55,818 nucleotides of DNA, taken from Haliangiales bacterium. Lineage in GTDB: Bacteria > Myxococcota_A > Polyangia > Haliangiales > SHYZ01. Position numbers and translations under genes: made by a program. The stretch is taken from NCBI GenBank assembly GCA_046595695.1, contig JBKJOI010000659.1, positions 1-55,818 on the forward strand. Direction: 5' to 3'. Positions 1 to 29,811 of this stretch are shown here, one piece after another. The notes below the pieces were generated by a model that saw only the letters and a program-made list of their open reading frames with translations, was not told where the DNA came from and searched no databases. How positions within the stretch are numbered: position 1 is the first letter of the stretch; every line of letters begins with the position of its first letter.

Positions 1-174
1 AACGCACGTGTGCCCGTTGCCGACGCGCGACTGTCGCTGTCGCTCTCGTGGATGCACTTCAGGTGGCTCGACTACGCGCTGCAGGATGATCGCGACGCGC
101 TGGTCGAGCCACCTGAAGTGCATCCACGAGAGCGACAGCGACAGTCGCGCGTCGGCAACGGGCACACGTGCGTT
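1..174. repeat. Perfect 72-bp inverted repeat (1-72 vs 103-174, 30-bp loop); probable fold-back artefact
   Basis: 1-72 is the exact reverse complement of 103-174; 1-102 read on + gives the DUF3570 C-terminal peptide NARVPVADARLSLSLSWMHFRWLDYALQDDRDALV. Confidence 0.95.
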
Positions 175-1143
175 GACGCTCGCGCCCACGGTGTAGCTGC
201 GCATGCCCCCGAGCGACCGGTCGCGGGTGCGCCAGGACGGCGCGCCCGCGCCGTCGTCGACGTAGCTCGACTCGTAGAAGCTCGCCGCACCCTGCAGGTA
301 AGCGCGCGCATGGACCCCGACGAGCACACGATCCTCATCGCCGAGCGCGAGCACACCTTGACCGCTCGCGGTGTGGCTGGTGATGCCCCAGTCGTCCCGG
401 TACAGGCGGTAGTCGGCCTGCACGAACCAGCGCGACGCGAGCGCGCGACGCACGCGCACCAGCGCCGCCAGCCCGGCCCGCTCGTCGGGGACGGCCTCGG
501 GCAGGCTGTACCGGGCCGAGCCGGTCGCGTCGACCACCGGCACGTAGCGGTACGGGCTCGCCAGGTAGCCGGTCTGCCGCTCGCCGTCCACGACCACGTC
601 GAGGTAGGTGCGCGGATCGAGCGTCTGGGTGAGCGTCAAGGCGAGGCGGTGGCCGCGGCGCGCGCGAGAGAAGCTGGCGTCGCCGGCACGACCCACCGTA
701 TCGAGGGCGCCGGTCCAGGCGACATCGAGCGTGGTATTGCGCTGCGCGACCTCGGTGCGGTAGCCGGCCCCGATCCGGAGCGCGTCGAAGTCGTTCTCGG
801 TCGAGCCCACCGCGCGCACGCTCAGCGTGTGGAGGCGCGCCGGCTGCCACGAGAGCGTGAGGCCACCCTCGACGCGCTCCTCCTCGAACGCGTAGGGGGA
901 CGCCGTCGAGGTCACGTCGACCGACGCCGCGCTGAGCACGTCCACGGTGACCGCGGCCTCGACCGCGAGCCGCTCGCCCAGCCCCGCGCTCGCGCTCGCC
1001 GACGGGCTCCACACCGTGACCGCGTCGTCGTCGGCGTAGACGCGCAGCGCCACGCTCGCGCCCCGCTCGGCCTCCTGGGCGTGCGCGGGGCCCGCGCTCG
1101 CGCCCAGCACGCCCGCCGCGAGCGCCAGGTGCCTCAGTTGCAC
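103..1143 (-). CDS. DUF3570-family outer-membrane protein (3' end broken by the fold-back)
   Basis: Missing from the ORF track because it has no stop. GTG at 1143 overlaps the DUF4266 end; reads MQLRHLALAAGVLGASAGPAHAQ..VYADDDAVTVWSP..VDVLSAASVDVTSTAS, with a signal peptide. Confidence 0.8.
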
Positions 1144-1364
1144 CCGCAGCCTCCCCCCGTCGAGCCGGTGCCGCCCCCCGAGGCCTCGCGGACCTCGTAG
1201 ACGTGCTCGTGGGCCGCGTGCATCACGGGCCAGGCCGGCTGCTGCAGTGCCGGCCTGGCCAGGGTCTCGCGCTGCCACGGCTGCACGCGCACGCACGCGG
1301 ACACCGAGGCCGAGACGAGCGCGAGCGCGGCGGCGCGCAGGAGGCCCCGTAACCCACGCTTCAT
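1134..1364 (-). CDS. DUF4266-family small lipoprotein
   Basis: MKRGLRGLLRAAALALVSASVSAC-VRVQPWQRETLA...REASGGGTGSTGGGCGCN; C-terminal GGGCGCN signature; ATGA overlap with the upstream gene. Confidence 0.9.
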   Translation of the reverse strand: MKRGLRGLLRAAALALVSASVSACVRVQPWQRETLARPALQQPAWPVMHAAHEHVYEVREASGGGTGSTGGGCGCN

Positions 1365-1843
1365 GGGGTCTCCTCCGGAAGGCGCAGCGTGACCAGGAAC
1401 GAGCGCAGCGCCCGGTAGTCGCGATCGTCGGTGCCGCGGAAGCTCGCGCCGCCCTCGTGGCCGCACCCGCCCGCGCCCAGCGCGAGCGGCTTGCGCAGCA
1501 CCAGGCAATCATCGACCGGCGCGCCCGCGAGCAGCGGCTCGAGCGCGAACGCGGCGACCGTGCGCGCGTTGGCCGCGAGCTCGGCCTCGCTGAGCGGCTC
1601 GGCGAGGAAGCGCCTCTCGGGATCGGCGCGGTGGCGCCCCGGGCTGTAGATCGCGAAGGGCCGCTCGGGGCGGCCGTGGCAGCCGGGATCGGCGCAGTGT
1701 CGATCGAGCACCGGCTGCGCCTCGGCGGCGAAGACCCCCAGGTCGCCTTCGGGCAGGCCGCGCGGTGGCCCCGGCTCGACCGCGCACGCGGCGAGCGCGA
1801 GCGCGAGCGCAAGCGCCCGCAGCGCGAGCGCGGCAGCCCTCAA
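1361..1843 (-). CDS. Lipoprotein with one CX4CH putative heme c domain
   Basis: TTG start overlapping the upstream stop, GGAGG upstream; lipobox LAAC; CADPGCH and LRKPL..GGCGHEGG. Confidence 0.8.
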   Translation of the reverse strand: MRAAALALRALALALALAACAVEPGPPRGLPEGDLGVFAAEAQPVLDRHCADPGCHGRPERPFAIYSPGRHRADPERRFLAEPLSEAELAANARTVAAFALEPLLAGAPVDDCLVLRKPLALGAGGCGHEGGASFRGTDDRDYRALRSFLVTLRLPEETP

Positions 1844-4740
1844 CGCGGCACCTCCACCGAGGGCGCGCGGTAGACCGCGCCCAGATCGATCCAGCGGATG
1901 AAGGCGCGGATCACGGCGTCGTCGAGCGGCGGCACCTCGGCGCCGGGCGGTGGACAGGCCATCGCGAGCACGCGCGGCGCACCCAGCTCGCGCCCGGTGA
2001 TCTTCTCGATGAGGTAGGAGCCCCACGCCGACCCGTTGCGCTCGTCGACATAGCGTTTGCCGCCCGTCGAGCCCGCGCCGAAGGCCTGGAGCTGCTCGTA
2101 GGCCGCGTCGTAGTAGCTCGTCGGCGTGGGCGTCAGCGCCAGCCCGCCCGCCGGGACCGCCCCCGCGTGGCAGCCGGCCACCGCGCAGGAGCGAGCCAGA
2201 CTGGGCGCCAGGTCGCGCCCGAAGTCGAAGTCCTGGGCGCCGAGCGAGCCCACGCGCACCGGTGGCAGCGGCCGGCGCGGGTCACGCCCGGCGAAGCTCG
2301 ACAGGGTCACCGAGGCGGTGGTGACCGCGTCGACGTCGAGCGGCGGCAGCGCGCTGGCCGGATCGCCGTCGAGGGCACCGTGACAGCCCGAGCAGAGCCG
2401 ACCGTAACTCGACGGCTGGGCGCCCTGCGGGAAGCGCTCGCCACCCTGCACCGAGAGCCACAGCAGCGAGGGCTGCCCGGCGGCGAAGCCGGCCGCGTCG
2501 AGCACCTGCATCCGCACCGGCACGCGCGCCGGCAACTCGGCCAGCACGGTGCCGTCGGCGGCGAGCGGCACCTCGCCGAGCAGCGCAAGCGGCAGGTGCA
2601 CCCCGTTCGACCACCACGTGGACGCCGGATCGCCGTTCGCGATCTGTGCCGGGTCGACCGCCGGCACGTCGGCCGGGCGCCAGCTCGGCCAGGCCAGGAA
2701 GCGCGCGTGCGCCGCGTCGGCGCGGAGCGGCTTGGCGCCGATGGGGGCGAGCACCCGGTTGACGGCCTCGTTGACCTGGATGCCGCTGTGCTTGAGCAGC
2801 CCGCTCGGCGAGCCGTCCCAGGCGTCGGCGTGGTCGTCGTCCTCGTCGGGCCGCGCGACCACGAGGGCGGGCTGATCATCGGCCTCGCCGGGTGCGTCCC
2901 ACAGCAGCGTTCGCTCGCCGAGGCGCGCGCCCTCGGGGGTGGCCTCGAGCGTGACGATCCACAGCCCGGTGTCGGGCATGGCGCCCGGGTCGATCGGATC
3001 GATCGGCCCCGGCGCGTGGGCGACCAGCAGCCGGCCGTCGGGGAGCGGCGCCGGATCGCGCCACAGCCCGTCGTCGGCGAGCACGGCCCAGGCGTGGCGG
3101 AAGCCGCCCACGGCGAGCTCGTCCAGGCGCTCGGCCGGTACGTCGGGTCCGAACTGGCGCTCCACCAGCGCCAGCGTCCCGCCCTCCCAGAGATCGTCCA
3201 CGCCGAGCAGCACCGCCACGTCGCGCCCGTCGGGGAGCTCGCGCAGGGTCCACACGATCGGGCGCGGCGCCGTCTGGCCGTGGTGCGGGTGGTACTCGGG
3301 CTGGAGGTGCGCCGTCCGATCGTGATCGGGCGGGAACCGGAACACCGCGCCGCGCACCGCGCCGCCCTGGCGACGCAGGGTCGTGAACGCGAGCGAGCCA
3401 CGGAACTCGCCGGTGGCCAGGAAGCTCGGGGCGAGCTCGGGTGTGGGCGTGAAGGTGAGCCGCACCGGCGTGCCGTCGGGCGCCAGGCGGTAGAGCTCCG
3501 CGTCGGCGCGGCGGCCCGACTCGTCGGCGTGCCCGGCGCGGGTCGAGACGTAGTGGATGGCGTCGCCTGGGCCGTAGACGGGCCAACGGCTGGTCGCGCC
3601 CGCACCCGCGCCGGCGGCGCCGTCGTGGGTCAGCCGCCTGAGGCCACCGCCGTCGATCCCGATCTCCCACAGATCGTGGCCCAGGTCGCCGGCGCGGCGC
3701 ATCGCGAAGGCGACGCGCGACCCGTCGTGGCTCACCGTGGGATCGCGCACATCGGCCGGACCATCGGGGTGGGCCCCGGCGCTGAGGTTGACCGGCGTGG
3801 CGCCGGGAAGCAGCGATGGGTGGAACCACACGTCGCTGCCGGGCCGGAACGCCTCCAGGTCGGCGAGCCCGCGCGGCGAGGCCGGGCCGCGCACGAACAC
3901 GACGCCGACTGGTGCGGGCGCGCCGACATGGCCGAGCGCCGCACGCTCCGCGGCGGCCCAGGCCACGATCGCTGCCGCGCCCGGGTCCTCGAGCGGTTCT
4001 CGGCCATTCACGCGCGGGAAGAAGGCGTCGTTGCCGCCGCGGTGGGGGATGCCGCCGTCGGCGAGCGGCAGGGCCTTGACCAGGAGGCGCGAGCGCGCGG
4101 GGTCGCCGGCGAGCGCGAGCGTGGCGCGCGCGGCCTCGCGGTTGGCGCGGATCTCCGCCACCGAGGGCTCGCCGCCCGCGCCGTCCATCGGCGGCGTGAG
4201 CGGCAGCCCGCCGAACTGCTGCGGGCCGTGGCAGCGCGCCAGCATGCAACCACGGTCGCGCAGCACCGGCAGTACGGTGTCGGCAAACTGCCGCTCGAGC
4301 GGCGTCAGCGCCTCGCGTGGCGATCCCTCGCCACCGTCGGTCTCCATGACCACCCACTCGCGCAGGGTGAGCCAGTCACGGTCGTCGCGACCGAGCAGGT
4401 GTCCGCCGGCGTGCGGCAGGCCGCCCTGGGCGAGCGCCAGCGGCTTGCGCAGGAGGCTCGAGAGCTCGGCGCGCTCGACGGTGTTGATGCGCGCCTTGAC
4501 GTTGGCGCGAGCCGCCGTCCGGTCGTTCACCCGACCGGTGGCATCGACGTCGACGAAGAAGTAGGCGCGATCCACGACCTCGCCGGCGGCCTCGGCACCG
4601 GGCGCCACGCCGTGGCACGCCGGCGCCAGGCAACGGCGCTCGAGCACCGGCACCACGCGGGTCTCGAAGAGCTCGCGCGGCGCCGGATCGCCGCAGCCAC
4701 TCTGCAGGATGACGAGGACAGCCAGACCGAGCGAACGCAC
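1840..4740 (-). CDS. Multiheme lipoprotein with TolB-like propeller and hydrazine-synthase-alpha-like middle domain (copy 1)
   Basis: Lipobox-like LQSGC; CLAPACH, CMLARCH, CSGCH, CAVAGCH; PD40-like DPTVSHDGSRVAFA; EVPLAADGTVLAELPARVPVRMQVLD..CSGCH. Confidence 0.85.
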   Translation of the reverse strand: MRSLGLAVLVILQSGCGDPAPRELFETRVVPVLERRCLAPACHGVAPGAEAAGEVVDRAYFFVDVDATGRVNDRTAARANVKARINTVERAELSSLLRKPLALAQGGLPHAGGHLLGRDDRDWLTLREWVVMETDGGEGSPREALTPLERQFADTVLPVLRDRGCMLARCHGPQQFGGLPLTPPMDGAGGEPSVAEIRANREAARATLALAGDPARSRLLVKALPLADGGIPHRGGNDAFFPRVNGREPLEDPGAAAIVAWAAAERAALGHVGAPAPVGVVFVRGPASPRGLADLEAFRPGSDVWFHPSLLPGATPVNLSAGAHPDGPADVRDPTVSHDGSRVAFAMRRAGDLGHDLWEIGIDGGGLRRLTHDGAAGAGAGATSRWPVYGPGDAIHYVSTRAGHADESGRRADAELYRLAPDGTPVRLTFTPTPELAPSFLATGEFRGSLAFTTLRRQGGAVRGAVFRFPPDHDRTAHLQPEYHPHHGQTAPRPIVWTLRELPDGRDVAVLLGVDDLWEGGTLALVERQFGPDVPAERLDELAVGGFRHAWAVLADDGLWRDPAPLPDGRLLVAHAPGPIDPIDPGAMPDTGLWIVTLEATPEGARLGERTLLWDAPGEADDQPALVVARPDEDDDHADAWDGSPSGLLKHSGIQVNEAVNRVLAPIGAKPLRADAAHARFLAWPSWRPADVPAVDPAQIANGDPASTWWSNGVHLPLALLGEVPLAADGTVLAELPARVPVRMQVLDAAGFAAGQPSLLWLSVQGGERFPQGAQPSSYGRLCSGCHGALDGDPASALPPLDVDAVTTASVTLSSFAGRDPRRPLPPVRVGSLGAQDFDFGRDLAPSLARSCAVAGCHAGAVPAGGLALTPTPTSYYDAAYEQLQAFGAGSTGGKRYVDERNGSAWGSYLIEKITGRELGAPRVLAMACPPPGAEVPPLDDAVIRAFIRWIDLGAVYRAPSVEVPR

Positions 4741-4776
4741 GCCTGGCTCTTATGCCCGATCCCCGAGGGCAACATC

Positions 4777-4790
4777 ATGACCGCCGTCAA
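4777..4790. promoter_or_regulatory. FNR-type box between divergent genes
   Basis: ATGAC-CGCC-GTCAA; centre 41.5 nt before GTG 4825 (+) and 43.5 nt before GTG 4740 (-). Confidence 0.7.
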
Positions 4791-4824
4791 TGTCGCACCA
4801 GGTAGTCCGTGCCAGCGTGAGCCC

Positions 4825-5592
4825 GTGCACAGGTCGGACCCGTCCGGCGCGCTCGCGCTCACGCTCACGCTCACGCTCACGCTCACGCTCACGCTCGCGC
4901 TCACGCTCGCGCTCGCCGCCTGCTCGAGCGAGCCGCTCGTGGCTGGCGACGCGGCGGCTGTGCCCCGGGATGCGGGCACGGTGGACGACGGCGGCATCGC
5001 GTGTCCGGCCGGGGGCGTGCGCGGCCGCGGACGCCATCGGCTGTTCGTGCAAGGGCACGGCGGCGAGCCGTACCCCGACGGCCGCTACCCATTCCTGCAC
5101 CCATGGAGCGCCGGCGGCGGCGACGCACCGCTCTGTGACGACGCGGTGTTCGTCGAGGATACCGACGGCGACGGCCGGTGGCAGCCCGGCGAGGCGCCGC
5201 GCCCGCTCGGCCCCGCCGCGCTCGTGCACGGTGAGCACTTCCTCGTCGGTAGTGGTGCCTTCGTCGAGCTCGCGATCACTCTCTGCGACGACATCACCGG
5301 TGACGTGGCGCTGTACATCCCCAACTTCGACGAGGCCGGCAGCCGCGCGCTGCACCAGCTGTTCGTGGTCCACGACGGCGAGGAGCGACTTGTCGCCGAG
5401 GCCGTCGACGACGAAGCCGGGCAGAGCGGCTACAACCCGTTCGTGCGGGTGCTCGCGGGCATCGACCCGCGCGCAACGCCCGGCGACACCTTGCTGCTGC
5501 GCAGCACCAACCTGAACGGCATCCCCTTCTCGGTGATGGTGTGGCAACCGCCCAGCGAGTACGAGTCGTGGATCCTGGTGGAGGTCCCGTGA
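4825..5592 (+). CDS. Hypothetical lipoprotein
   Basis: Real portion of ORF 1765..5592; signal with (LT/LA)n then LAAC; acidic DTDGDG motif; GTGA overlap with the next gene. Confidence 0.75.
   Translation: MHRSDPSGALALTLTLTLTLTLTLALTLALAACSSEPLVAGDAAAVPRDAGTVDDGGIACPAGGVRGRGRHRLFVQGHGGEPYPDGRYPFLHPWSAGGGDAPLCDDAVFVEDTDGDGRWQPGEAPRPLGPAALVHGEHFLVGSGAFVELAITLCDDITGDVALYIPNFDEAGSRALHQLFVVHDGEERLVAEAVDDEAGQSGYNPFVRVLAGIDPRATPGDTLLLRSTNLNGIPFSVMVWQPPSEYESWILVEVP
4851..4916 (+). repeat. Tandem hexamer (GCTCRC)x11 in signal-peptide coding region
   Basis: Counted directly; encodes LALTLTLTLTLTLTLALTLALA. Confidence 0.9.
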
Positions 5593-6173
5593 CGCGCACG
5601 TCCCATCGACGGCTCACCCGGCTCGCCGCCAGCCTGGTGCTCGCGAGCTGCGGCACCGACGCCGGCGACGACCCGCTGCGCAGCGCCGACGCTGGTCCGC
5701 CACCCGATGCGGCGGTCTGTCGCGACGCGGGCGTGCTCGAGCTCGGCGCCTGCCGGCTCACCGAGGGACAGACCTGCCAGGGCCGCGCCGGCGAGGAGCG
5801 TCACTTCGAGACGCTGCCCGAGGGCGGCGCGATGACCATCGTGCTCGGGCCGCAGGGCTCGACCATGTTCGTGTTCTCGGCCCGCACCGCGGGCATCGTG
5901 CCCGGCGATCCAGCCCAGCCGGCCAGCCCCGACAACCCGCTGATCGAGATCCAGGTGTTCGACGACCAAGCCGCGCTGGTCGCGCGTTACCGCGGGCGCG
6001 CGGCGTTCGCGACCGACCCCGGTGTCGGTGGGCTCACCGCGACTGGGCTGTTCGTGGTCGTCGACGGCCCGGCCAGCGCATTCATCGGCCGACGCCTGCG
6101 CGCGATCGCTACCCTCACCGATCGTGACCACGCCGTGCGCTGTGGCGGCGCCTCGTTCGTGGCCGAGAACTGA
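5589..6173 (+). CDS. Hypothetical lipoprotein
   Basis: GTG overlapping the previous stop; LASC lipobox; LGPQGSTMFV motif. Confidence 0.7.
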   Translation: MTRTSHRRLTRLAASLVLASCGTDAGDDPLRSADAGPPPDAAVCRDAGVLELGACRLTEGQTCQGRAGEERHFETLPEGGAMTIVLGPQGSTMFVFSARTAGIVPGDPAQPASPDNPLIEIQVFDDQAALVARYRGRAAFATDPGVGGLTATGLFVVVDGPASAFIGRRLRAIATLTDRDHAVRCGGASFVAEN

Positions 6174-6241
6174 CCGGGGTCAAGCCGGCGGGCCATGCGC
6201 GAGCGACTTCTGGCCCACGACTGGGGATGCGCTTTCGCCGA

Positions 6242-6835
6242 TCAGGGCACCGCTTCAGGTCTCTCGCTCGGGTCGCGACTCGTCGCCGCTCCTGGTTTCG
6301 CCACGATCAGCGCAGCGAAGATCTCGGCTCCGAAGCGGTCGACCTGGGCCCAGTCGGTGAACTCGTAGTCCTGGCTGGTGTCGACGGGCCGGCCCTGCGA
6401 GCGACCGATGAGCTTCATCATCAGCCGGGTGAGCCAGCCGTACTGCGTGTAGCGCAGCGCTCCGCCGAACGTCGCGATGTGCGCGGGTTGCCAGTGCACC
6501 CGGGCAAGAAAGGCCGCCACCATCTGATCGAGCCCCTCGCGCACCGAGGCCCGCCGCGAGCTGGCCGACATGCTCACCGAGAAGAATGCGCCCGCCCGGG
6601 TGGCTAGCCTCGGAGCATGGCGCTTCAGCCATCTCTCGATGGCGGCGTGATGGCGGCTCATGTGCACCGGTGAGCCCACGATGACCGCCTCGAAGTTCCT
6701 CGGATCGGGTCGTTCGTAGGCGGCATCGGCGAGATGCACGCGCAGCCCGCGCGTTCGCAGCGTCTCGGCGATGCGGGACGCGATCGTGCGAGTCTGGCCG
6801 TGGCGCGAGGCGAACAGGACGAGGACGCGGGTCAT
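6242..6835 (-). CDS. hemG: Flavodoxin-domain protoporphyrinogen IX dehydrogenase (HemG-like)
   Basis: ASRHGQTRTIA FMN loop; FGGALRYTQY; DTSQDYEFTDWAQVDRF. Confidence 0.85.
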   Translation of the reverse strand: MTRVLVLFASRHGQTRTIASRIAETLRTRGLRVHLADAAYERPDPRNFEAVIVGSPVHMSRHHAAIERWLKRHAPRLATRAGAFFSVSMSASSRRASVREGLDQMVAAFLARVHWQPAHIATFGGALRYTQYGWLTRLMMKLIGRSQGRPVDTSQDYEFTDWAQVDRFGAEIFAALIVAKPGAATSRDPSERPEAVP

Positions 6836-6953
6836 CAGGACCTCCGGACTTTCGCGCAGGCAACGGCCGTTCGACCTCGGCGGAGCGCGCGTGGCTCCGC
6901 CGGTTCCGCGGCTCTCGTGGGCGCCGCCAGCCGCATTTCAGGCTCGTACCGGC

Positions 6954-6969
6954 AGCATGCAAAGAGCCA
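6954..6969 (-). promoter_or_regulatory. sigma54 -24/-12 motif upstream of hemG
   Basis: TGGCTC-TTTGC-ATGCT, 118 nt before the start. Confidence 0.45.
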
Positions 6970-7225
6970 CCGATGGGAAGGGGCGCGCGCTGCGGCCGAG
7001 CACGAAGTGGTGCGACCAGAGTGCGCCGCCCGCGATCGCCAGCGCCCAGATGACGGGACAGCCACCACCTGCCCGCGTGGCGCAGCGTCACCAGCGGGAA
7101 CGGGGGGTTGCTGCCGGCCATGAGCAGGCCGAGCTCGCGGCTGCGGCGCGTGGCGGTCTGACTCGATCGGGCCTTCCATCGAAGTTGCCACGCTCGACGT
7201 ATATCCCCCGCCCGGCCCCGGCGAG

Positions 7226-7277
7226 TTGACCGCGATCATGCCGGGCGCCGTCGTGGCACAAGGATGACCGAGGTCAT
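7226..7277. promoter_or_regulatory. Two FNR-like boxes in a degraded region
   Basis: TTGAC-CGCG-ATCAT (7226-7239, centre 41.5 nt before GTG 7191 on -) and ATGAC-CGAG-GTCAT (7264-7277). Confidence 0.55.
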
Positions 7278-7774: not shown

Positions 7775-8197
7775 TCAGGACGCAACTCGTGCGGTGGTCT
7801 CGTTCGTTGCGGACGTGGTCACGGTCAGCTCCGGTGGATCGAACAGCGTCTTCTTCACCTTGCACGCGGCCGCGGCGCGCGCGACCGCCTCGCGATACTG
7901 GGTCGGGAACTCGGGCGGGACCTGGACGTCGAGGGTGACGCGCGCCAGCCGGCCGGTCTTCGCGTCGTGCTCGCTGCGTTGGACCAAGCGGATGTTCTCG
8001 GTCGGGATGTCCCGGGCACGGCAGAAGGCCGCCACGTACAGGCCCGCACACGTGCCGAGGGAAGCCAGAAAGAGTGTGAATGGCTCCGGTGCACTGCCCT
8101 CGCCACCACTCTCCCGAGGCTGATCGGTGTGCAGGGTGAACCCGTTCACGTGCGCGTCGACGCGCTTGCCGCCGGGAAGGGTGACGATGATCTCCAT
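7775..8197 (-). CDS. OsmC-family protein
   Basis: TDQPRESGGEGSAPEPFTLFLASLGTC...CKVKKTL. Confidence 0.9.
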   Translation of the reverse strand: MEIIVTLPGGKRVDAHVNGFTLHTDQPRESGGEGSAPEPFTLFLASLGTCAGLYVAAFCRARDIPTENIRLVQRSEHDAKTGRLARVTLDVQVPPEFPTQYREAVARAAAACKVKKTLFDPPELTVTTSATNETTARVAS

Positions 8198-8209
8198 GGT
8201 CTGGTCTCC

Positions 8210-8225
8210 TGCATGATGAGAGCCA
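8210..8225 (-). promoter_or_regulatory. sigma54 promoter
   Basis: TGGCTC-TCATC-ATGCA, 12 nt before ATG 8197. Confidence 0.6.
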
Positions 8226-8272
8226 GCTCAGGCTGGAAGGGTTCGGCGAGCGGTCGAACAGGTGCCGGGGCG

Positions 8273-8731
8273 CTAGCGCGCCAGCAGGATCACCTGCCCG
8301 AGCGGATCCAGCTGGCCCTCCTCGACGCACGCGGCACACGCCTCCTCGGAACGAGTGCAGCCGCGACAGCGCGCCAGGCTCTCCCGCGCCTGGATGAGGT
8401 CGTGTCGGGTGCGCGACAGCACAGCGATACGCTCGGTCAGCCGCCGCGCTGCGTCGCTGATCACGTCGAATGTCGCCGCGGCGATGGGTCCGGGGCCGAC
8501 GCCGCCATCCCGGACGGCCAGGATCGACTGGATGCGCGTCAGCGTCAGGCCGCCGGCCTGCAGGGTCAGGATTGCACGCACCCGCCGGACGACCTCGATG
8601 TCGTAGCTTGGCCCTCGCGAGGTCAACGGGCGCGCGATGAGCCCGCGCGCCTGCAGGCGCCGGATGGTCTTGCGCCCGCACCCTGCCATTCGGGCCAGGT
8701 CACCAGTGGAGTAGCGCCGAGGAGTTCCCAC
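8273..8731 (-). CDS. MerR-family regulator with C-terminal Cys cluster
   Basis: YSTGDLARMAGCGRKTIR HTH; GLTLTRI; CRGC..CAAC. Confidence 0.8.
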   Translation of the reverse strand: MGTPRRYSTGDLARMAGCGRKTIRRLQARGLIARPLTSRGPSYDIEVVRRVRAILTLQAGGLTLTRIQSILAVRDGGVGPGPIAAATFDVISDAARRLTERIAVLSRTRHDLIQARESLARCRGCTRSEEACAACVEEGQLDPLGQVILLAR

Positions 8732-8806
8732 ACATCACATGGTGCGCCGAGCGCGCGCGCCACTCAACCTCGGCGACGTACCGATGGGCGACTTGACGAT
8801 CGACAA

Positions 8807-9520
8807 TCACGGCGCCGCCTGGCCGTCGACCACCCAGCGCTCGATGATGCGCACATCCTGGTTCGAGACACCGTCGTGGCCCGCGGCGACGATGGTCACG
8901 AGCAACGAGCTCGCGTCACCAGCGATCACATTCGGGGTGCTGTCCGTGCCGCTACCGAAGGTGTCCTGGTAGCGCGCCACCGAGTAGTTGCCCGCGGTCC
9001 CGTGGCAGTCGCCGCAGGCGTACTTCTCGAGCACCGGGTGGACGTCGGCCGCGAAGCGCGGCGCCGCGCCGGCACCGCCATCGCTTCCCCCGGTGGTGCC
9101 GGCGTCCGTGTCGCCGGCTGGCGCGGGCGCGTACGGTGCCCCATCGGCGATCCACGCGACCCACCGCTGCACCGCGGCGTCGCTGCCGGGGAGCGACGAC
9201 ACGTGACCGCCGAGCCCGGTGGCCATGTCAATGAGCGGACTGTGATCGGCGGTGCCCGCGAAGGCAATCACCTGCTCGTAGTTCGCCTGCCACGCGGCGT
9301 CGTCGCCCGGGGACGCGGTGACGTGCATGGCGATACTCCCACCGCCGTGACACGACTGAGCCGCACAGCCACTCGCCTCGAGGTCTGCCTGGATGGTCGG
9401 GCGGAACATCACGGCAGCGCCAGGGTCAGCGTCGGGCTCGCCGCCCGCGCCGGTGGGAAGCATCGAGCCGCTGCAAGCCGTCGCCATCGCAGCGGCGAGA
9501 ATCACGAGAAGAGCATGCAT
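8807..9520 (-). CDS. Diheme c-type cytochrome lipoprotein
   Basis: ATAC lipobox; CAAQSCH (CX4CH) and CGDCH; FAADVHPVL..C..CH..IERWVVDG pattern. Confidence 0.8.
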   Translation of the reverse strand: MHALLVILAAAMATACSGSMLPTGAGGEPDADPGAAVMFRPTIQADLEASGCAAQSCHGGGSIAMHVTASPGDDAAWQANYEQVIAFAGTADHSPLIDMATGLGGHVSSLPGSDAAVQRWVAWIADGAPYAPAPAGDTDAGTTGGSDGGAGAAPRFAADVHPVLEKYACGDCHGTAGNYSVARYQDTFGSGTDSTPNVIAGDASSLLVTIVAAGHDGVSNQDVRIIERWVVDGQAAP

Positions 9521-13357: not shown

Positions 13358-13594
13358 ATGGCGTACCGACTCGTTACCTGTCCCGAGACGGCGCACCTCG
13401 AGTTGCTGGAGTACGAGGTGGACCCACTGGGCGTGTTGGTTCAAGCCTGCTCGCGGTTCGGTTCATCGCGTGACGTTCATTGCCCCCGAACCTGCGCCGC
13501 ACGCCTCGATCGCTGTGAACGCGCCTGCTCGGTGGCCGAGGATGACGACGATGTGGCCGAGGAGCGCACCGAGGTCGAAGTCGATCAGCTCTAG
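13358..13594 (+). CDS. Small Cys-rich protein with acidic tail
   Basis: MAYRLVTCPET..ACSRF..CPRTC..CERAC; has its own sigma54 motif. Confidence 0.7.
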   Translation: MAYRLVTCPETAHLELLEYEVDPLGVLVQACSRFGSSRDVHCPRTCAARLDRCERACSVAEDDDDVAEERTEVEVDQL

Positions 13595-13619
13595 GGCCGG
13601 GCCGCGTGGGCCGCGCTCG

Positions 13620-14400
13620 CCCACGCGGGCAGCTGGCGACCGCGATCGGCTTGCGCAGGAGCAGGCTGTGCCGGGCCTCCGATACGTCGAGCAGGAACGC
13701 CGAGGCCTGCATGTGATTGTGGGCGAGCTCCTCCTCGGTCAGTGGCGCATCGAGGTAGGTATCCTGCGGCCGCATCCGGTGCTGGTGCACCGCGAACAAC
13801 GAGAGCGGGCGAGCCGCCGCCCCATGGCAGCTCGCGTTTGCGCAGCGCTCGGCGAGGATCGGCTGCGCCTTGGCGACGAGGCCGTGGTGAGCGCGTCCGG
13901 GGCCTCCAGCTCGGGCGGGCGTCCGCCCACGCCCTCGGGATCGCCGTGGCATGCCGCACACCGCGAGCCGTAGCGGCGAGCCCCCGTCGCCACCGACAGG
14001 CCCTGTACCAGCGTCTGCCCTGGCAAGAGGTAGTACCAGCGGTTGTGCATGGCGCCCACGGCCATGCGCGCGGCATCGAGCGCCTGCAGCCGGAAGGACA
14101 CGCCCACCGGCACGCGCGCCTGGAAGCTGCCGTCGGCCGCGACCGGCAGCTCGGCGAGCACGCGTGCCGGCCCGTGTCGCCCCAGCGCCGCCGAGGTCGC
14201 GCCGGGCGTACCCGAAAGCGTGTCCTGGGCGGGCACGGGCGACCGATCGGCTGGGCGCATCGCCCGGTGCTCGACCAGGCGAACGAACGCGATATCCGCG
14301 CGCACGCGCCCGAGGGCGGCAGGTTGGCCAGCCGCCCCGGCCGCCGCGAGGCCCCCACGTACGGCCCCTCGTCCATGGAGGTATTGACCCCACGAGCCCC
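13620..14400 (-). pseudogene. Decayed copy of the HzsA-like plus CX4CH-cytochrome gene pair
   Basis: ELPVAADGSFQARVPVGVSFRLQALD..CAACHG joined out of frame to AQPILAERCANASCHG..SLLLRKPIA; boundaries approximate. Confidence 0.8.
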
Positions 14401-14842
14401 CGCTCTCCGACGGTGACGCGAGCGCGAAGCGTACGCAGGAGCCCCAGATCGCGACGGTACACGAGGGTGCAGTCGACCGCATGCGGAGGTACGTCGTGCC
14501 CAAACGCCTGCCCAGGCTCATCATCTTCGTCCCGCTCTTCCTCGGCGCCTGCAAATCCAGGCGCGCTCCCCGTCGTGGGCAACAACGAGTGCGCCGATCC
14601 ACCCGAGTTGCCCTACGCGTGCGCGGGGGCGTGTTCCCCTGCGAGTGCGTCGACCTACGCGTGCGCGACGCCCGCTGACCCCGCGCACCGGGCGCGACTT
14701 GTCGATCGTCAAGCCGGAGACCCGCGCATCGGTCGGCTCCTCGATCAACTCCTCGTGAGCGCGTCGTTTCTCGCTAAGCTCAGCAGCGCGACACGATGAT
14801 GCCGTCCTTCACGTCCTCCACGCCCTTCCGCGAGCCCACGTC

Positions 14843-17131: not shown

Positions 17132-20128
17132 TCACTCCAGATCGCGCAGGCCGGCGGTGCGCGCCTGGCTGGTCGAGGCCGAGGTGAGCGCGTCGACGTC
17201 GATATGCACGTCCAGCTCACGGCCGCTCACCGAGCCGTGGCACTCGGCGCAGGTCGTCCCGAAGACGCGCTCGGGCACGCCCATGTTGATCGCCTCGCGC
17301 GCGCCGAACTGGAGCTCCTCACGCTGCCGGAACAGCACCTGGCCCTCGTCGTCGAGGAGCTCGATGAGCAGCGGGCGACGGGTGGGCACGCGCAGGTAAG
17401 CCGAGCCATCCGGGAACACCGGCGCCTCGCCCAGCTCGACCCGCTGCTCGAACACCTGCTCGTCGCCGGCGAAGTCACTCACGCACACCGGTGCGTCGGC
17501 CGCCGTGCACTCGAGCGGCGGCGCGGCGTGCGCGAAGAAGCGCACCCTCGTGGCGGCGCGCAGGCCGGTGACCGCGCGGCCGCGCCGGTCGTTGCCGTCG
17601 AGCAGCGTCGCCAGGAGCGGCAGGTCGAGGAAGTGGACGACGGCGAGCGCGTCGGTGGCCTGCTCGGCGTCGGGCGGCTGGCGATCGCGGTGGAACAGCG
17701 GCTCGGGCGGCCGCGGCATCACCAGCACCGCCTCGACCCGCGAGCCCGGGCCCGTCACGAGCGCGCGCCGCGCGCCGGTGCGCGGATCGACCGCCACGAG
17801 ATCGTAGCGCACGGGCGCCTCGGCGCCGACGTCCACGCCCTCGGCGTAAGCGGCCAGCACGGTCCCGTCGGGCAGCATGAACGGTGATCGATAAGCGCCC
17901 GTGGCCTCGCCGGCGCGCCCGGTCGGGCCCGGCAGCACGGTCAGGGAGCGCACGTAGTCGGCATCGATGCGACCCTGCTCGAACGGCCCGACCGAGCGGT
18001 TGAACACGCCCAGCGCGCCGCCCTGGCCGCGGGCGCCCGCGTCGGCGAGCACCACCAGCAGGTTCCCGTCGAGCGCGCTGCGACTCTCGGTGACCTGGGC
18101 GTACCCGATGCTGGGCACGAGCTCGGCGTCGGGGGGGGCCGCCCCGGGCAGGTAGCCGCCACGGCCCTGGTAGCTCTCGGCGCGCTGGCCGACGAGCGGG
18201 TGGTAGTCGCCGAGGTCCCAGTCCAGGCGCCGGCCGGCGATCTGGTAGAAGTCCGCCGACATCTTCTCCGCGGTCATGGTGAGCTGGCCGTGCGCGGTGA
18301 TGCCCGGCTGGGCCTCGACGCCGCGCAGGAAGGTCATGCGCTCGCCGGCGCCCGAGCCATCGGCGCGCTGGCGCCACAGGTCGGCACCCGGAAGCAGGAG
18401 CTTGGGCGTGCGCCGAGGCCCCTCGGGGCCGCCTCGTGAGGAGGCGTAGACGATCCACTCGAGCCCGGCGTCGTCGACCACGTACGTGGGATCGAAGTTG
18501 TGCACGCTCAGGCCGCCCTGGACCTCGCCGCCGTCGAGGGTGATGCGCCGGCAGCCCGAGCCGTCGACGCCGACCTCCCAGACGTCGAGGCCGCTCGCGG
18601 CGCCGACGCGCAGCGCGAAGACCACGCGCGTGCCGTCGTAGCTGGGCTCGGGCGTGCGCACGTCGATCGCGGCACGGTCCGGGCCGACCCCGGCACAGCC
18701 CGCCAGCAGGCTGGTCCGCCCGCTGACCGACGCGAGCGCTGCGTTCGCGCCGAGCAGCGCCTCGCCGCGCACCAGATCGGCGCCGGGACGAAACTCCGAG
18801 AAGTCGACCAGCCGGCTCGCGTCGGCGGGCCGCTCGACCCACACCAGCGGCAGGGTCGTGCCCGCGGCGGCGCCAGCGCGCTGCGACGCGGGTAGCTCCG
18901 CCCGCTCGAGGCGCAACCACTCGGCGAGCGCGCAAACCGGCGGCGAGGTCACGGGATCGTAGGGCGTCGGGCACGCCGCCGGATCGAGCGCCTGCCCGGG
19001 TGTCTCGAGCAGGGCGCCGGCGCGGTGCGCGAGGCCGCCGTGACCTGCCAGCACGTTCTTGGCCACGATCCGGCTGACCCTTGGATTGGGCGAGCCCAGC
19101 GCGAGCAGCGCGCGCGCCTCGCGGTAGTCGATCGCGCGCGCGATCGGCGAGAAGAAGCCGAAGCTGCCCGCGCGCAGCTTGAGCTCGTGCGGCACGACCG
19201 GGCTGTGGCACGCTTGGGCGGCGCAGCCGCGCCGGAGCAGCAGCGGCAAGACCTCCTGGTCGAAGAAGCGCCGCGCGTCGGTGATGTCGGCCTCCGGCAG
19301 CGGCCCCGCCAGGAGGGCCCAGGCCCGCAAGGTCTCGAGGTCGGGGTCATCGACCGCGTCGAACAGGATGCCGCCGCCGTGAGAGCCGCCGCCGAGCTGG
19401 GGCGAGAGCGGGCGACGCAACAGTTCGCTGTCCTCGGCTGGGCTGGCGACGAACGCCCGCGCGACCAGGTAGTTGGCCCTGCGCTGCGGCTCGTCGCTGC
19501 CGCACGCGATCTGCAGATCCAGGCGCCCGCTGCCGTGACACGAGCCCTGGCCGCAACGCCGCACGAGCACGTCCTGCGCCGGACCGAACGCGGCATAGCC
19601 AGGGTCGTCCGCGCCGACCTGGGTGATGTCGACCAACGTCGAGGCCTTGTCACTGCACGCGCCCACGCCGCCCGCGGAGGCGCCCGACGAAGGCGGCGGG
19701 CGCCCGTCACGGGTGGCGCCGTTGTCGAGCCACCGCTTGAGCGTCAGGTACGCGGGGCCGCTCATCTGCAGCACCGCGCCGCCGGCGTGCGTCACCTCGA
19801 GCGGCTGGAAGTCGCCCCGGTACGAGATGTCGAGCTCGCGCGAGTCGACCGCCTTGATGAGCAGCAGCGGCTCCGGATAGGAGCCGTACGGGCGGAGCAG
19901 ATCCTGGCGCAGCAGGAGCGCCTCGTACGAGGTGACGTCCAGGTTGCCGAGCGCCCGGCCCGAGCCGTCGTCCCGGTGGCAGCCCGAGACCCCCGAGGCA
20001 CACCTGGCGAGCAGGAGCGGCTGGATCTGCCGGTCGAAGTAGTCGTGGCGCGGCCGGGTCTCGGCATCGCAGGCGGCCAGGGCCAGGCAGCCGCCGAGGA
20101 CTCCGAGGATCGCCAGGAGTGCGCGCAT
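17132..20128 (-). CDS. Multiheme lipoprotein with TolB-like propeller and hydrazine-synthase-alpha-like domain (copy 2)
   Basis: Start MRALLAILGVLGGCLALAAC; CASGVSGCH, CGQGSCH, CAAQACH, CAECH; PEPSYDGTRVVFA; EAPVFPDGSAYLRVP..IELLD. Confidence 0.85.
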   Translation of the reverse strand: MRALLAILGVLGGCLALAACDAETRPRHDYFDRQIQPLLLARCASGVSGCHRDDGSGRALGNLDVTSYEALLLRQDLLRPYGSYPEPLLLIKAVDSRELDISYRGDFQPLEVTHAGGAVLQMSGPAYLTLKRWLDNGATRDGRPPPSSGASAGGVGACSDKASTLVDITQVGADDPGYAAFGPAQDVLVRRCGQGSCHGSGRLDLQIACGSDEPQRRANYLVARAFVASPAEDSELLRRPLSPQLGGGSHGGGILFDAVDDPDLETLRAWALLAGPLPEADITDARRFFDQEVLPLLLRRGCAAQACHSPVVPHELKLRAGSFGFFSPIARAIDYREARALLALGSPNPRVSRIVAKNVLAGHGGLAHRAGALLETPGQALDPAACPTPYDPVTSPPVCALAEWLRLERAELPASQRAGAAAGTTLPLVWVERPADASRLVDFSEFRPGADLVRGEALLGANAALASVSGRTSLLAGCAGVGPDRAAIDVRTPEPSYDGTRVVFALRVGAASGLDVWEVGVDGSGCRRITLDGGEVQGGLSVHNFDPTYVVDDAGLEWIVYASSRGGPEGPRRTPKLLLPGADLWRQRADGSGAGERMTFLRGVEAQPGITAHGQLTMTAEKMSADFYQIAGRRLDWDLGDYHPLVGQRAESYQGRGGYLPGAAPPDAELVPSIGYAQVTESRSALDGNLLVVLADAGARGQGGALGVFNRSVGPFEQGRIDADYVRSLTVLPGPTGRAGEATGAYRSPFMLPDGTVLAAYAEGVDVGAEAPVRYDLVAVDPRTGARRALVTGPGSRVEAVLVMPRPPEPLFHRDRQPPDAEQATDALAVVHFLDLPLLATLLDGNDRRGRAVTGLRAATRVRFFAHAAPPLECTAADAPVCVSDFAGDEQVFEQRVELGEAPVFPDGSAYLRVPTRRPLLIELLDDEGQVLFRQREELQFGAREAINMGVPERVFGTTCAECHGSVSGRELDVHIDVDALTSASTSQARTAGLRDLE

Positions 20129-20162
20129 GATCACAGTATCGGCGGCGCCCGGGCGATCGATC

Positions 20163-20176
20163 TTGATCGAGGTCAA
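20163..20176. promoter_or_regulatory. FNR box, class II position
   Basis: TTGAT-CGAG-GTCAA; centre 41.5 nt before ATG 20128, with GATACT at -12..-7. Confidence 0.85.
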
Positions 20177-20440: not shown

Positions 20441-21763
20441 TTGCGAGCGGAGCGCGTCGAGGTCGTCGTCGTCGGAGGAGGCATCGCGGGGCTCGCGAGC
20501 GCGTGGCACCTGGTGCGCCAGGGCGTGTCCGGCGTGTGCATCCTCGAGCGCGAGGCCACGCTCGGCGCGCACGCCTCCGGGCGCAACGCCGCCATCCTTC
20601 GCCACGTGGACGACGACGAGCACGGCGTCCGGCTCGCGCTGCGGAGTCGCACCCTCCTCGGCCTGCTCGGCGGTCGGGCGGCCGCGCTGCTGCGCCCGAC
20701 CGGTACGTTGTTCCTGGGTCGCCATGAGCGCCTGCGGCGCATGGCCGAGCTCGCCGCGGGCGCCGCGATCCCGACCGTGTGGCTCGCGCCCGCGGCCATC
20801 GGCGCCCGCGTGCCCGTGCTCGCGGGCGGCGACGCGGAGCACGGCCTGCTCGTCGCGGAGGACGGCGTCCTCGATACCCACGCGCTCCTCGAGGCGCTGG
20901 CACGCGGGGCGCGTGCCCGCGGCGCGCGCGTGCGCACCGGCGTGACGGTGGCCGGCATCACGCGGCGGGGCGAGACGGTCACCGGCGTACGGCTGGCGAA
21001 TGGCGAAGAGGTCCAGGCCACCACCGTCGTGGTCGCGGCGGGTGCCTGGTCTGCCGGCCTGGGTGCGACCTGCGCCGCACCGATGCCGCTCGAGTCGCGC
21101 CGGCGGCACCTGGCCATGCTGGTCGCCGAGGACGCCCTCGCCGCCGCCAGCCCCGTGGTCTGGAAGCTCGACGGTGACGAGGTGTACTTCCGGGCCGAGT
21201 CCGGCGGCATCCTGGCCAGTCCCTGCGACGAGGAGGTCTGGCCTGCCGGGCTGCCACCGTGCGCCCCGGATCAGCTCGGGCAGCTCGCCGAACGGCTATC
21301 GCGCGTCGCGCCCGGCCTCGCGACCGCCCGCGTGCGTCGGGCCTGGGCCTGCCTGCGCACCTTCGCGCCCGACGGCGGGTTCCTCGCGGGCGCGGATCCG
21401 CGCTGCCGTGGCCTGTTCTGGATCGCAGGCCTCGGCGGTCGCGGCATGAGCTGCGGCCTCGCGCTCGGCGAGCTCGTCGCCGCGCACATCCTCGGGCAGC
21501 CGCACGTCCTCGCCGAGGCGCTCGCGCCCGCGCGCCTGCTCGCGCCGCTCGCGCGCTCCCACCCGCGCAGGCGCGACCGGCGTGGACGCACGCGCACGCA
21601 CGTGACGGTCGGCAGGGTCAGCCCGCCGCGCTGTGCAGCCTCGCTGCATCGCCGACCACATCGCGCAACACCTGCTCGAGCGCCAGGCGCGCGGCCGCGC
21701 CCTCGCAGAGCCAGGCGCTCGCGACGTCCAGGCTCGCGCTGCACAGGATCGCGTCGGAGGTGA
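20441..21763 (+). CDS. FAD-dependent oxidoreductase (DadA/glycine oxidase family); C-terminal ~70 aa probably read-through
   Basis: VVVVGGGIAG, ASGRNAA, VVVAAGAWS, WACLRTFAPDG, GLGGRG. Confidence 0.85.
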   Translation: MRAERVEVVVVGGGIAGLASAWHLVRQGVSGVCILEREATLGAHASGRNAAILRHVDDDEHGVRLALRSRTLLGLLGGRAAALLRPTGTLFLGRHERLRRMAELAAGAAIPTVWLAPAAIGARVPVLAGGDAEHGLLVAEDGVLDTHALLEALARGARARGARVRTGVTVAGITRRGETVTGVRLANGEEVQATTVVVAAGAWSAGLGATCAAPMPLESRRRHLAMLVAEDALAAASPVVWKLDGDEVYFRAESGGILASPCDEEVWPAGLPPCAPDQLGQLAERLSRVAPGLATARVRRAWACLRTFAPDGGFLAGADPRCRGLFWIAGLGGRGMSCGLALGELVAAHILGQPHVLAEALAPARLLAPLARSHPRRRDRRGRTRTHVTVGRVSPPRCAASLHRRPHRATPARAPGARPRPRRARRSRRPGSRCTGSRRR

Positions 21764-22055
21764 TACGTGCGGTGTCGAGGTAGGTGTCGCGCACCAGCGC
21801 CTCGATGCCCAGGAAGGAGCCAGCGATGCGTATCGCGACCGGGACCTTCACCGAGCCGGGCTTGCTAGCGCGGGTCAGCACCGCGCTGCCGCGCTTGATG
21901 AACCAGATACGCGTGGCGGGCTCGCCCTCGAAGTGAACGTACTCCGCGCGCCGCTTCGGCTCGTCGACGAGCGGGCAGCAGCCCCCCAGGTCCACGCCTG
22001 CCGCCCGGCCACACGGACAGTTCGAGCAGTTCACAATCCGTGACTCGAATGGCAC
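21618..22055 (-). pseudogene. Crp/Fnr-family regulator truncated before the HTH
   Basis: CSNCPC..CCPLVD, EGEPA..WFIKRG; ends where its paralogs continue into VPETFSR. Confidence 0.7.
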
Positions 22056-22067
22056 TTAGATGCTCAA

Positions 22068-22083
22068 TGCCATTCTCGTGCCA
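22068..22083 (-). promoter_or_regulatory. sigma54 promoter
   Basis: TGGCAC-GAGAA-TGGCA, 12 nt before GTG 22055. Confidence 0.65.
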
Positions 22084-22105
22084 CTCGTCGGGTTCGGCGA
22101 GGCGG

Positions 22106-24979: not shown

Positions 24980-24982
24980 GAG

Positions 24983-26103: not shown

Positions 26104-26116
26104 GGCGTGTTCCTCG

Positions 26117-27730: not shown

Positions 27731-27740
27731 GGCGTTCTCC

Positions 27741-28265: not shown

Positions 28266-28284
28266 CGGTGGCCTCCCGTCTCGC

Positions 28285-29798: not shown

Positions 29799-29811
29799 GC
29801 CGGACGACAAG

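Follow-up and report, generated by a model that had tools for sequence, protein, structure and literature searches.

Homologues of the hydrazine synthase (HZS) alpha subunit and of a fused beta-gamma subunit are known from bacteria outside the anammox group, where they form clades I-IV in Planctomycetota, Desulfobacterota and a few others (Hagglund 2025, Genome Biol Evol, PMC12758564). Among exported redox proteins of another kind, the DUF3570 protein of Chlorobium luteolum is flavinylated by ApbE at two motifs, and a C-terminal CXC has been noted in the DUF4266 protein (Meheust 2021, eLife, PMC8238504); the same source already describes the ApbE and thioredoxin context that the initial annotation of the present DNA gave as usual for DUF4266/DUF3570. 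The stretch analyzed here (the window, 55,818 nucleotides, G+C content about 75%) is the complete contig C876 of a metagenome-assembled genome of a Haliangiales bacterium, an uncultured myxobacterium from soil (8.19 Mb in 1016 contigs, completeness 93.3%, contamination 4.99%). Its left end carries the first part of an operon of seven genes, A to G, in which relatives of HZS subunits are encoded together with a DUF4266/DUF3570 pair. The operon is read, with a probability of roughly 55%, as a low-oxygen-induced unit for an exported haem and flavin redox machine. The architecture has good support; a flavin on A, the route of the electrons and the substrate are parts that we infer.

All operon genes of the window lie on the reverse strand: A (4740..1840; GTG start, 966 amino acids), B (1843..1361; TTG start, 160 amino acids), C (1364..1134; ATG start, 76 amino acids) and D (GTG start at 1143, running down to 103 in the window, the first 347 of about 367 codons). 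The stop codon of A overlaps the TTG of B by 4 nucleotides (TTGA), the stop codon of B overlaps the ATG of C by 4 nucleotides (ATGA), and C and D overlap by 10 nucleotides (GTGCAACTGA), with the GTG of D inside C. Read directly in the sequence, these overlaps agree with the initial annotation, which had described four genes joined in this way. Its four window genes stand as parts of an operon; its gene number does not, and neither does position 103 as the end of D and of the operon, since the arms of a repeat there are complementary, the D frame is still open and the true 3' end lies on another contig, C802.

The window begins with a perfect inverted repeat, its arms (1-72 and 103-174) being 100% complementary around a loop of 30 nucleotides, and the frame of D has no stop up to the window end. 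Positions 1..102 (forward strand) carry, in sense orientation, the 34 codons with which the DUF3570 gene goes on, and at 103 they meet the antisense strand of the same gene head-to-head; the forward frame of 1-102 reads ...SWMHFRWLDYALQDDRDALV, and its protein is identical to that of C802 1-58, with 2 synonymous differences. A microhomology of 4 nucleotides (GTCG/CGAC) at the 102/103 join fits a snap-back chimera. A 90-nucleotide Logan contig of run X1 (possibly the source sample) exactly matches window 43-132 at low depth, and the chimera was therefore already present in the reads. The contig-end fold-back is a snap-back chimera that masks the real D-E junction. C802 opens with the same 58 bases as the window end (2 differences) and extends D to ...VASTGVWIPW and a stop codon. 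There the ATG of E (a lipoprotein of 185 amino acids) overlaps the stop codon of D, and F (832 amino acids) and G (342 amino acids) follow, again with overlaps. Judged by synteny, C802 is the true continuation of the window operon, because the order A-B-C-D-E-F recurs in relatives. The contigs of runs X2-X4 are short or come from relatives, and none of the pieces listed spans D to E. The operon comprises seven translationally coupled genes, A-B-C-D in the window and E-F-G on C802, and a lipoprotein-type signal starts every protein except D (A, B, C, E, F and G). Generic scans for sigma-70 promoters and terminators gave no site in window 1-5200 or C802 1-4600.

Gene order was compared in two surveys. 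Of 15 loci retrieved from relatives by their best matches to A, eight keep A-B-C-D-E-F (type-1 loci), and five of these also carry G and the divergent genes U1-U2 described below; four further loci (L062-L065) have an A-like gene followed directly by an F-like gene, without B-E. The gene caller used on the loci performs badly on the lower-GC loci L059 and L065. The second survey, with one genome per species and a 37-sequence alignment of the D subfamily, gave 80 loci, the gene content of which was scored by tblastn; they were chosen by likeness to D, and shares among them are not frequencies. Nearly all belong to Polyangia (Myxococcales, Kofleriaceae, Haliangiales, Polyangiaceae, Sandaracinaceae, Labilithrix). 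The window gene order was found in ten of them, six of these being, to judge by their length, contigs of the first survey; one short contig holds D-E only, another F and D, and six loci are rearranged (A-B-F-...-D or A-F-B-...-D), with ApbE directly before D in three (L096, L101, L122) and a thioredoxin in one. In the remaining 62 loci tblastn gave no clear A or F match; an Alcanivorax locus among them shows a weak A-like match (24%) before thioredoxin-C-D. As far as gene content tells, the link of A/F to D persists through gene reshuffling across Polyangia, and the pairing of DUF3570 with haem lipoproteins that had been noted from the window alone is conserved in these neighborhoods.

The A protein comprises two N-terminal CX4CH domains, a TolB-like propeller, a HZS_alpha middle domain (CSGCH at residue 783), the sequence DAVTTAS (804-810) and a C-terminal CX4CH (852). 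Its four haem motifs (CX4CH at 37, 165 and 852, CSGCH at 783) are invariant in 13/13 homologues. As a single sequence A scores 23.7 bits against Pfam HZS_alpha, below the cut-off of 26.6, whereas the profile of the 13 homologues matches HzsA (PDB 5c2v_A) with an E-value of 1.1e-31, in stretches of the propeller, middle and C-terminal domains. The CSGCH of A aligns with the CSGCH of HzsA (the haem alpha-I motif), and the last CX4CH aligns with the second haem motif of HzsA. By this profile match A is shown to be a homologue of the HZS alpha subunit, as the label HzsA-like had implied. The partner that the four-gene view had missed is F: its profile matches HzsB (5c2v_B) with an E-value of 3.1e-21 and HzsC (5c2v_C) with 2.6e-12, and the CxxCH motifs C491/C494/H495 and C689/C692/H693 are both retained in 9/9 sequences. 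Two residues of the true enzyme, the third haem link gamma-Cys165 and gamma-His144, lie beyond the parts covered by the alignment. F, a single-copy gene in the genome, is thus identified at profile level as a fused HzsB/HzsC-like protein with an N-terminal YVTN-type propeller and a C-terminal dihaem domain, and A and F together as a distant HZS-like alpha plus fused beta-gamma pair, the core that the initial annotation lacked when it took four genes for the full system. They are not taken as a hydrazine synthase, because the NCBIfam equivalog scores lie far below the cut-offs: 42.7 bits of 800 for alpha with A and, for F, 40.5 of 1250 with hydrazine_BC and 43.7 of 560 with beta (gamma E-value 3.1e-5).

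An ApbE-type motif, the DAVTTAS at 804-810, stands in A 21 residues after the CSGCH, and its D804, A809 and S810 are invariant in 13/13 homologues. Of 85 database homologues collected with A residues 690-966, 77 carry the pattern D-x-x-[STAG]-x-A-[ST], placed +19 to +24 relative to the CxxCH; about ten are fully canonical (e.g., DAITGAS, DVVSGAS), and the eight without the motif are P0284 and the seven most distant proteins. In the rearranged loci the motif is present in four of six A proteins, but not in L094 or in the contig-cut L122. ApbE is encoded directly before the A-like gene in one locus, L066. Ser810 of A may be flavinylated by ApbE, to go by this conservation. The same locus (contig G033:C1, 13669-19999) is an HZS-like cluster that holds, in this order, genes for an F-like protein, ApbE, a 1074-residue A-like protein and a trihaem protein of 103 amino acids, without DUF3570, and further on a 133-residue protein with the canonical motif DAISGAT.

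A second HzsA-like lipoprotein, a paralogue of A with 1014 amino acids and about 29% identity to it, is encoded at 17132-20176 (reverse strand). It has two CX4CH motifs and, at its end, CAECH followed by DALTSAS, without the C-terminal haem domain, and an exact FNR-type box (20163-20176) precedes it. No F-like partner lies beside it. Two overlapping frames at 13374-14602 (reverse strand) hold a piece of a HZS_alpha middle domain with CAACH (tblastn 13931-14305) and a B-like CX4CH piece (13632-13880), with a one-mismatch box at 14699-14712; the gene caller did not pick them up, and they could represent a pair of small genes or a copy in decay.

B (1843..1361) is a monohaem CX4CH lipoprotein with the lipobox LALAAC and CADPGCH at residue 50. 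No Pfam (E-value up to 1) or NCBIfam family was found for it, and hhalign relates it to the CX4CH domains of A with probabilities of 98.8% (N1), 96.4% (N2) and 90.4% (C-terminal haem part). B is a free-standing copy of the CX4CH domain of A.

D (103..1143, reverse strand) belongs to DUF3570 (PF12094, 132.4 bits, cut-off 25) and C (1134..1364, reverse strand) to DUF4266 (PF14086, 67.6 bits, cut-off 27). The signal peptide of D ends AHA/QE and its true C-terminus on C802 is aromatic (...WIPW). The barrel was modeled with AlphaFold2 on P0002, a full-length D homologue with 60% identity; the model has a mean predicted local distance difference test score (pLDDT) of 92.2, a predicted template modeling score of 0.87 and 16 long strands. 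It gave 391 PDB matches at E-values up to 0.001, of which the top matches listed were all outer-membrane barrels, the best being OccD2, AlgE, FadL, BcsC and OmpG. On the strength of this model D is shown to be a 16-strand outer-membrane barrel, in agreement with the barrel that had been postulated for it. Three long connections of the P0002 barrel (13, 27 and 28 residues) share one face, and the first of them bears tandem motifs of the flavinylation type, which read DVLSAAS-V-DVTSTAS in the window protein (68-74 and 76-82). DVLSAAS aligns with VDSLTGAS of canonical DUF3570, and across 87 sequences both motifs keep their D, A and S with few or no exceptions. A covalent flavin on D is therefore likely by homology. 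The genome encodes one ApbE, with a signal peptide, on contig C413, and ApbE is present in 5/5 operon-bearing genomes tested.

C has the lipobox SASVSAC and ends in GGGCGCN; in 98 aligned sequences of its family the CGC is invariant and the lipobox Cys at least 90% conserved. The complex of C and D was predicted in three runs with a pair from genome G037 (64% and 53% identical to the window proteins) alongside 3 controls. The median interface score (ipSAE) was 0.81 (runs 0.81, 0.70 and 0.83) versus 0.01 for the best control, at least 76% of the contacts agreed between runs, and the partner pLDDT was at least 64. The mark used is reached by 116/157 solved complexes and 2/215 mismatched pairs, a calibration that is only rough here with custom alignments. 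The contacts fall on every second residue of most strands, i.e., on the lumen wall; on the short-turn face the strand ends are contacted by C residues 30-33, on the long-loop face by residues 45-49. C is thus predicted to sit inside the lumen of the D barrel, which supports binding, and an interface of the kind expected among the four window proteins is predicted for DUF4266 and DUF3570.

D and C also occur without HZS genes. DUF3570 was found in 57/61 genomes of the order (a tally including the unpublished G058), with up to 10 matches per genome, and the genome of the window has four other DUF3570 loci, with SH3, DUF2271, ECF-sigma/redoxin or unknown genes as neighbors. Among D loci that lack HZS genes, the closest ones adjoin cytochromes of about 412-447 amino acids, and 7/7 of these tested match Cytochrome_C554 and related multihaem families; some such loci (L084, L098) are built as X-C-D operons, and a YtkA-like lipoprotein follows D in several. 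In loci of the Sandaracinaceae type, genes for a CxxCH protein and a B-like CX4CH protein come after D, and one locus (L118) combines redoxin, DsbD, D, a B-like protein, ApbE and a ferric-reductase-like membrane protein. The ApbE/thioredoxin/DsbD context beside DUF3570/DUF4266 occurs in L118, L135 and L139. D-C behaves as a module recurrently coupled to c-type haem lipoproteins, because D adjoins cytochromes and B-like proteins in varied loci. In the genome of the window, a DUF4266-DUF3570 pair follows two large DUF2271 proteins (L018, contig C298, 3396-7912). DUF2271 is another ApbE substrate family (Meheust 2021), and both flavinylated families therefore occur in one gene string.

An FNR/CRP-type box at 4777..4790 is common to the A operon and the divergent genes U1-U2. 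On the reverse strand it reads TTGACGGCGGTCAT, has 7/10 consensus letters and lies 50 nucleotides before the GTG of A. TTGAY-N4-RTCAA (8-10 of 10 letters) stands at the same position in 7/7 orthologous loci (L052-L058), the box of L056 being perfect (TTGATCGCCATCAA); it is absent from L060, a locus with A-B-C-D only. If 1 mismatch is allowed, the window contains 14 copies of the box pattern versus 0.66 expected (maximum of 100 shuffles, 3), and of the 8 exact boxes in the 8.19-Mb genome (2.3 expected from base composition) 3 are on C876 and 2 on C802. Three CRP/FNR-family genes lie in the window (21618-22765, reverse strand; 32429-33052, forward strand), two of them with Cys-rich N-termini. 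By eye, a -10-like hexamer CATAAG (4749..4754, reverse strand) is placed 22 nucleotides after the box and 8 nucleotides before the GTG of A; the orthologues, also by eye, have a TAnnnT-like hexamer 21-22 nucleotides past the box and the GTG another 6-8 nucleotides on (hexamers TAGCCT, TAGGCT, TAGCGT, TAGGTT, TAGGTT, TATCGA and TATCGA). The standard for a class II FNR promoter is TTGAT-N4-ATCAA centered near -41.5, and we infer such a class II geometry, almost leaderless, before A. FNR-type control of the operon is well supported by the box pattern, and the anaerobic control first proposed for these genes is supported to that extent by its presence in all seven orthologous loci and its enrichment in the window and on C876/C802.

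In the proposed mechanism, A and F would form an HZS-like two-subunit haem enzyme, lipid-anchored in the periplasm. This enzyme would make no hydrazine; more likely it would reduce a small N- or O-oxide (nitric oxide (NO), hydroxylamine, peroxide) when oxygen is scarce. The gamma subunit of HZS is cytochrome c peroxidase (CCP)/MauG-like and reduces NO. The single ApbE, encoded elsewhere in the genome, would attach flavin mononucleotide (FMN) to D at two serines of loop 2, and probably to A as well, at Ser810 next to the catalytic-type haem. C would thread the lumen of D from the periplasmic side, so that its CGC dithiol reaches the loop side close to the flavins, and B would carry electrons one at a time between the A-F enzyme and the barrel module with its flavins and thiols. 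D-C may then be a reusable outer-membrane redox socket, into which sister lineages plug other cytochromes or a DsbD/thioredoxin relay. The most specific form of this proposal, an HZS-like alpha subunit that is itself an ApbE substrate (FMN on Ser810, making a haem-flavin family) together with a D-C flavin-dithiol relay acting through B, is suggested by the motifs and is put forward tentatively, as a doubtful candidate. If it is true, it would be a second, non-cytochrome solution to electron transfer across the outer membrane.

Several points weigh against this reading or parts of it. In the profile alignment 'CSGCHyGSYRG' of HzsA pairs with 'CagCH.GaldG', so that Tyr591, the axial ligand of haem alpha-I in HzsA, is matched by Leu. 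The residue two before the acceptor serine, G in the canonical motif D-x-x-[S/T]-G-A-[S/T], is T, M or Q in many A homologues and A or T in D. The only tested substitution in print, a Gly-to-Ala change in a different substrate, was tolerated with about 50% flavinylation (ApbE review). A piece of A of 76 residues around its motif matched no PDB chain at E-values up to 10, and the conserved motif could serve the haem pocket instead of flavin attachment. A scan of C802 and of the window genes up to 43 kb showed no gene for ApbE, a thioredoxin or DsbD. It is not obvious how electrons would travel about 25 angstroms through a barrel whose lumen is filled by a peptide without cofactors, and the long-loop face of D is assumed to be the cell surface from loop lengths and the usual barrel topology only. 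The guessed substrate rests on homology and on a neighborhood resembling that of denitrification. Finally, the source is a metagenome-assembled genome with 2/58 mismatches in the overlap, and C802 may be the copy of a sister strain.

Other explanations draw on much of the same evidence. The initial annotation had offered a porin-cytochrome conduit or, alternatively, an uptake-and-convert complex. An MtrAB-type conduit was rejected, the lumen being predicted to be filled by DUF4266, B having one haem motif and the operon no MtrA-like gene; the porin-cytochrome idea followed the wrong cofactor logic, because flavinylation by ApbE had already been established for the DUF3570 family, and it fails also for want of an MtrA-like decahaem protein in the operon. 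Uptake and conversion would make D a substrate or product channel, gated by the C plug, for a small solute moving to or from the periplasmic HZS-like enzyme, with the serine motifs as structural elements. The nearest folds of D are indeed substrate-specific channels (OccD2, FadL, AlgE), the model with C in the lumen is plug-like and D is always near enzyme genes; the D, A and S of both motifs are nevertheless invariant or nearly so, and ApbE adjoins D in 3/6 rearranged loci. Small uncharged N-oxides, moreover, need no channel. With a relative of D flavinylated at the aligned motif as well (Meheust 2021), a channel of this kind is considered unlikely. A device for lipoprotein display, which would thread or anchor lipoproteins at the cell surface in the manner of LptDE or RcsF-OmpA and have no redox role, would account for the lipoprotein-type signals on all operon proteins but D and for the prediction that C passes all the way through D, from its periplasmic end to the end with the loops. 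The invariant CGC of C and the flavin motifs of D are, however, redox features, and Pfam shows no likeness to the LptD or Slam families; the analogy is given very little credence.

A reduction to detoxification, in which A and F are an FNR-induced periplasmic peroxidase of the CCP/MauG type or a NO reductase and B-E are unrelated hitch-hikers, gains from established knowledge of FNR control over bacterial ccp genes, from the match of the C-terminal half of F to the dihaem gamma subunit and from the A-F pairs that exist without B-E. The gamma subunit is described as CCP/MauG-like, with the CCP-type Trp in non-anammox homologues (Hagglund 2025), which also favors it. Hitch-hiking is hard to reconcile with an A/F-D link that survives changes of gene order in six loci, with genes coupled by overlapping codons, with a B that copies the haem domain of A itself and with B-like genes recurring beside D where A is absent, and this reduction is regarded as improbable. 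That homologues of all three HZS subunits are encoded in one operon would also suit a myxobacterium with a genuine hydrazine synthase and a cryptic metabolism of the anammox kind. Given equivalog scores of 42.7/800 (alpha), 43.7/560 (beta) and 40.5/1250 (beta-gamma fusion), the alignment of HzsA Tyr591 with Leu, the lack of a hydrazine dehydrogenase gene or one like hydroxylamine oxidoreductase (HAO) among the window and C802 genes scanned, and the same verdict on other non-anammox homologues (Hagglund 2025), the chance of this is close to nil. The exported haem and flavin machine is preferred over these explanations.

Regarding the remaining operon genes, E and G gave no Pfam (E-value up to 1) or NCBIfam family. 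The model of E has a pLDDT of 83.9 and shows an Ig-like beta-sandwich; naming E from its PDB matches RhoGDI and PDE6D was rejected at template modeling scores of only 0.34-0.39. In the Atlas, E falls in unnamed Myxococcota clusters only, and G carries a BNR/sialidase-like label at 0.97, which is a lead only. The E orthologue of L054 has a (Pro-Cys)n run, placed like the hexanucleotide-repeat stretch of U1 described below. On C802 (L016), a gene at 4364-7237 (reverse strand) that converges on G encodes a cytochrome of 957 amino acids with nine CxxCH motifs and one CX4CH and weak matches to ExtM and to MtrC/MtrF domains, and a gene at 7872-9104 (forward strand), with an exact box at its annotated start, encodes a 410-residue protein of no family that is syntenic with the operon in L053, L054 and L055.

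The divergent genes U1 (4777..5592) and U2 (5541..6173), both on the forward strand, encode lipoproteins for which no Pfam (E-value up to 1) or NCBIfam family was found, and both are syntenic in 5/8 type-1 loci. The real start of U1 is probably the GTG of 'VHRSDPSG...', after the box. U2 has a weak likeness to E (hhalign 64%), and U1 resembles E in the signal peptide only. A (GTGAGC)n repeat on the reverse strand at 4843-4917 encodes a Leu-Thr run in the signal peptide of U1 and is missing in the orthologues compared. Farther into the window, a type II dimethyl sulfoxide reductase-family operon (36111-42355, reverse strand) encodes an alpha subunit of 1156 amino acids with a twin-arginine signal, an iron-sulfur beta subunit, an EB_dh-type haem gamma subunit and a NarJ-like chaperone. 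A respiratory island (22898-29816, reverse strand; 31529-31825, 33096-33674 and 35579-36079) holds genes for a cytochrome b/4Fe-4S/FlpD fusion, SCO1, COX1- and COX2-like haem-copper oxidase subunits, a small cytochrome c, a hemerythrin and a cytochrome c'-like protein, and these genes suggest N-oxide or low-oxygen respiration.

HZS-like pairs and flavinylated DUF3570/DUF4266 have each been published; no paper joining them was found. The main text of Hagglund 2025 mentions neither Myxococcota nor DUF3570, and the words 'hydrazine', 'HZS', 'barrel' and 'porin' are absent from the main text of Meheust 2021, the large supplementary tables of which lay outside this check. Both the non-anammox HZS relatives and the DUF3570/DUF4266 module are widespread and have no known function, and the operon links them under one putative low-oxygen promoter. 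This link survives reshuffling across Polyangia, and each system can therefore be studied through the other. Should the alpha-like subunit prove to be flavinylated, the chemistry of the family and ideas on the origin of HZS from older periplasmic haem proteins would need rethinking. The operon gives two orphan protein systems a testable partner.

MtrAB/MtrCAB conduits consist of an outer-membrane barrel with periplasmic or lipoprotein cytochromes, the MtrB barrel being larger than 16 strands and its occupant a decahaem protein. The present operon resembles them in that a barrel is encoded with cytochromes and its lumen is predicted to hold a redox-relevant partner; it differs in its 16 strands, in the predicted occupant, a 53-residue CXC lipoprotein, and in flavins as the likely cofactors of the barrel. 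LptD-LptE and RcsF in OmpA/C/F are plug-and-barrel lipoprotein complexes; a lipoprotein predicted inside a barrel lumen is common to them and to D-C, which has no sequence or family likeness to them and, unlike them, conserved redox motifs. Profile matches recover three features of the hydrazine synthase of Kuenenia stuttgartiensis (PDB 5C2V/5C2W), namely the way the domains of alpha are ordered, the propeller of beta and the dihaem domain of gamma. The relation is remote, with equivalog scores at 3-8% of the cut-offs and Tyr591 not kept, and the proteins here differ in the fusion of beta and gamma, in being lipoproteins, in the flavinylation-type motif on alpha and in their non-anammox host.

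The systems described by Hagglund 2025 are closer. As in these, alpha is encoded upstream of a beta-gamma fusion, the CxxCH of haem alpha-I is kept and Tyr591 lost, the gamma part has two CxxCH motifs, and the cluster includes an accessory propeller gene, which is the downstream, BNR-like G here (a weak lead) and an FG-GAP protein gene between the two genes there. Only in the present operon do a CX4CH cytochrome, DUF4266, DUF3570 and the lipoprotein E stand between alpha and beta-gamma, and its alpha subunit has two extra N-terminal CX4CH domains and a CX4CH as second haem motif, as judged against the systems set out in that paper. With the 'DsbD' clusters of Meheust 2021 the operon shares a DUF4266 gene with a C-terminal CXC directly before a DUF3570 gene with two motifs of the flavinylation type, and proteins that are all extracytosolic. 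The motifs of D, in contrast to the [S/T]GA[S/T] given there, are SAAS and STAS, and in place of the ApbE, thioredoxin and DsbD of those clusters the operon supplies c-type haem proteins of the HZS family as partners.

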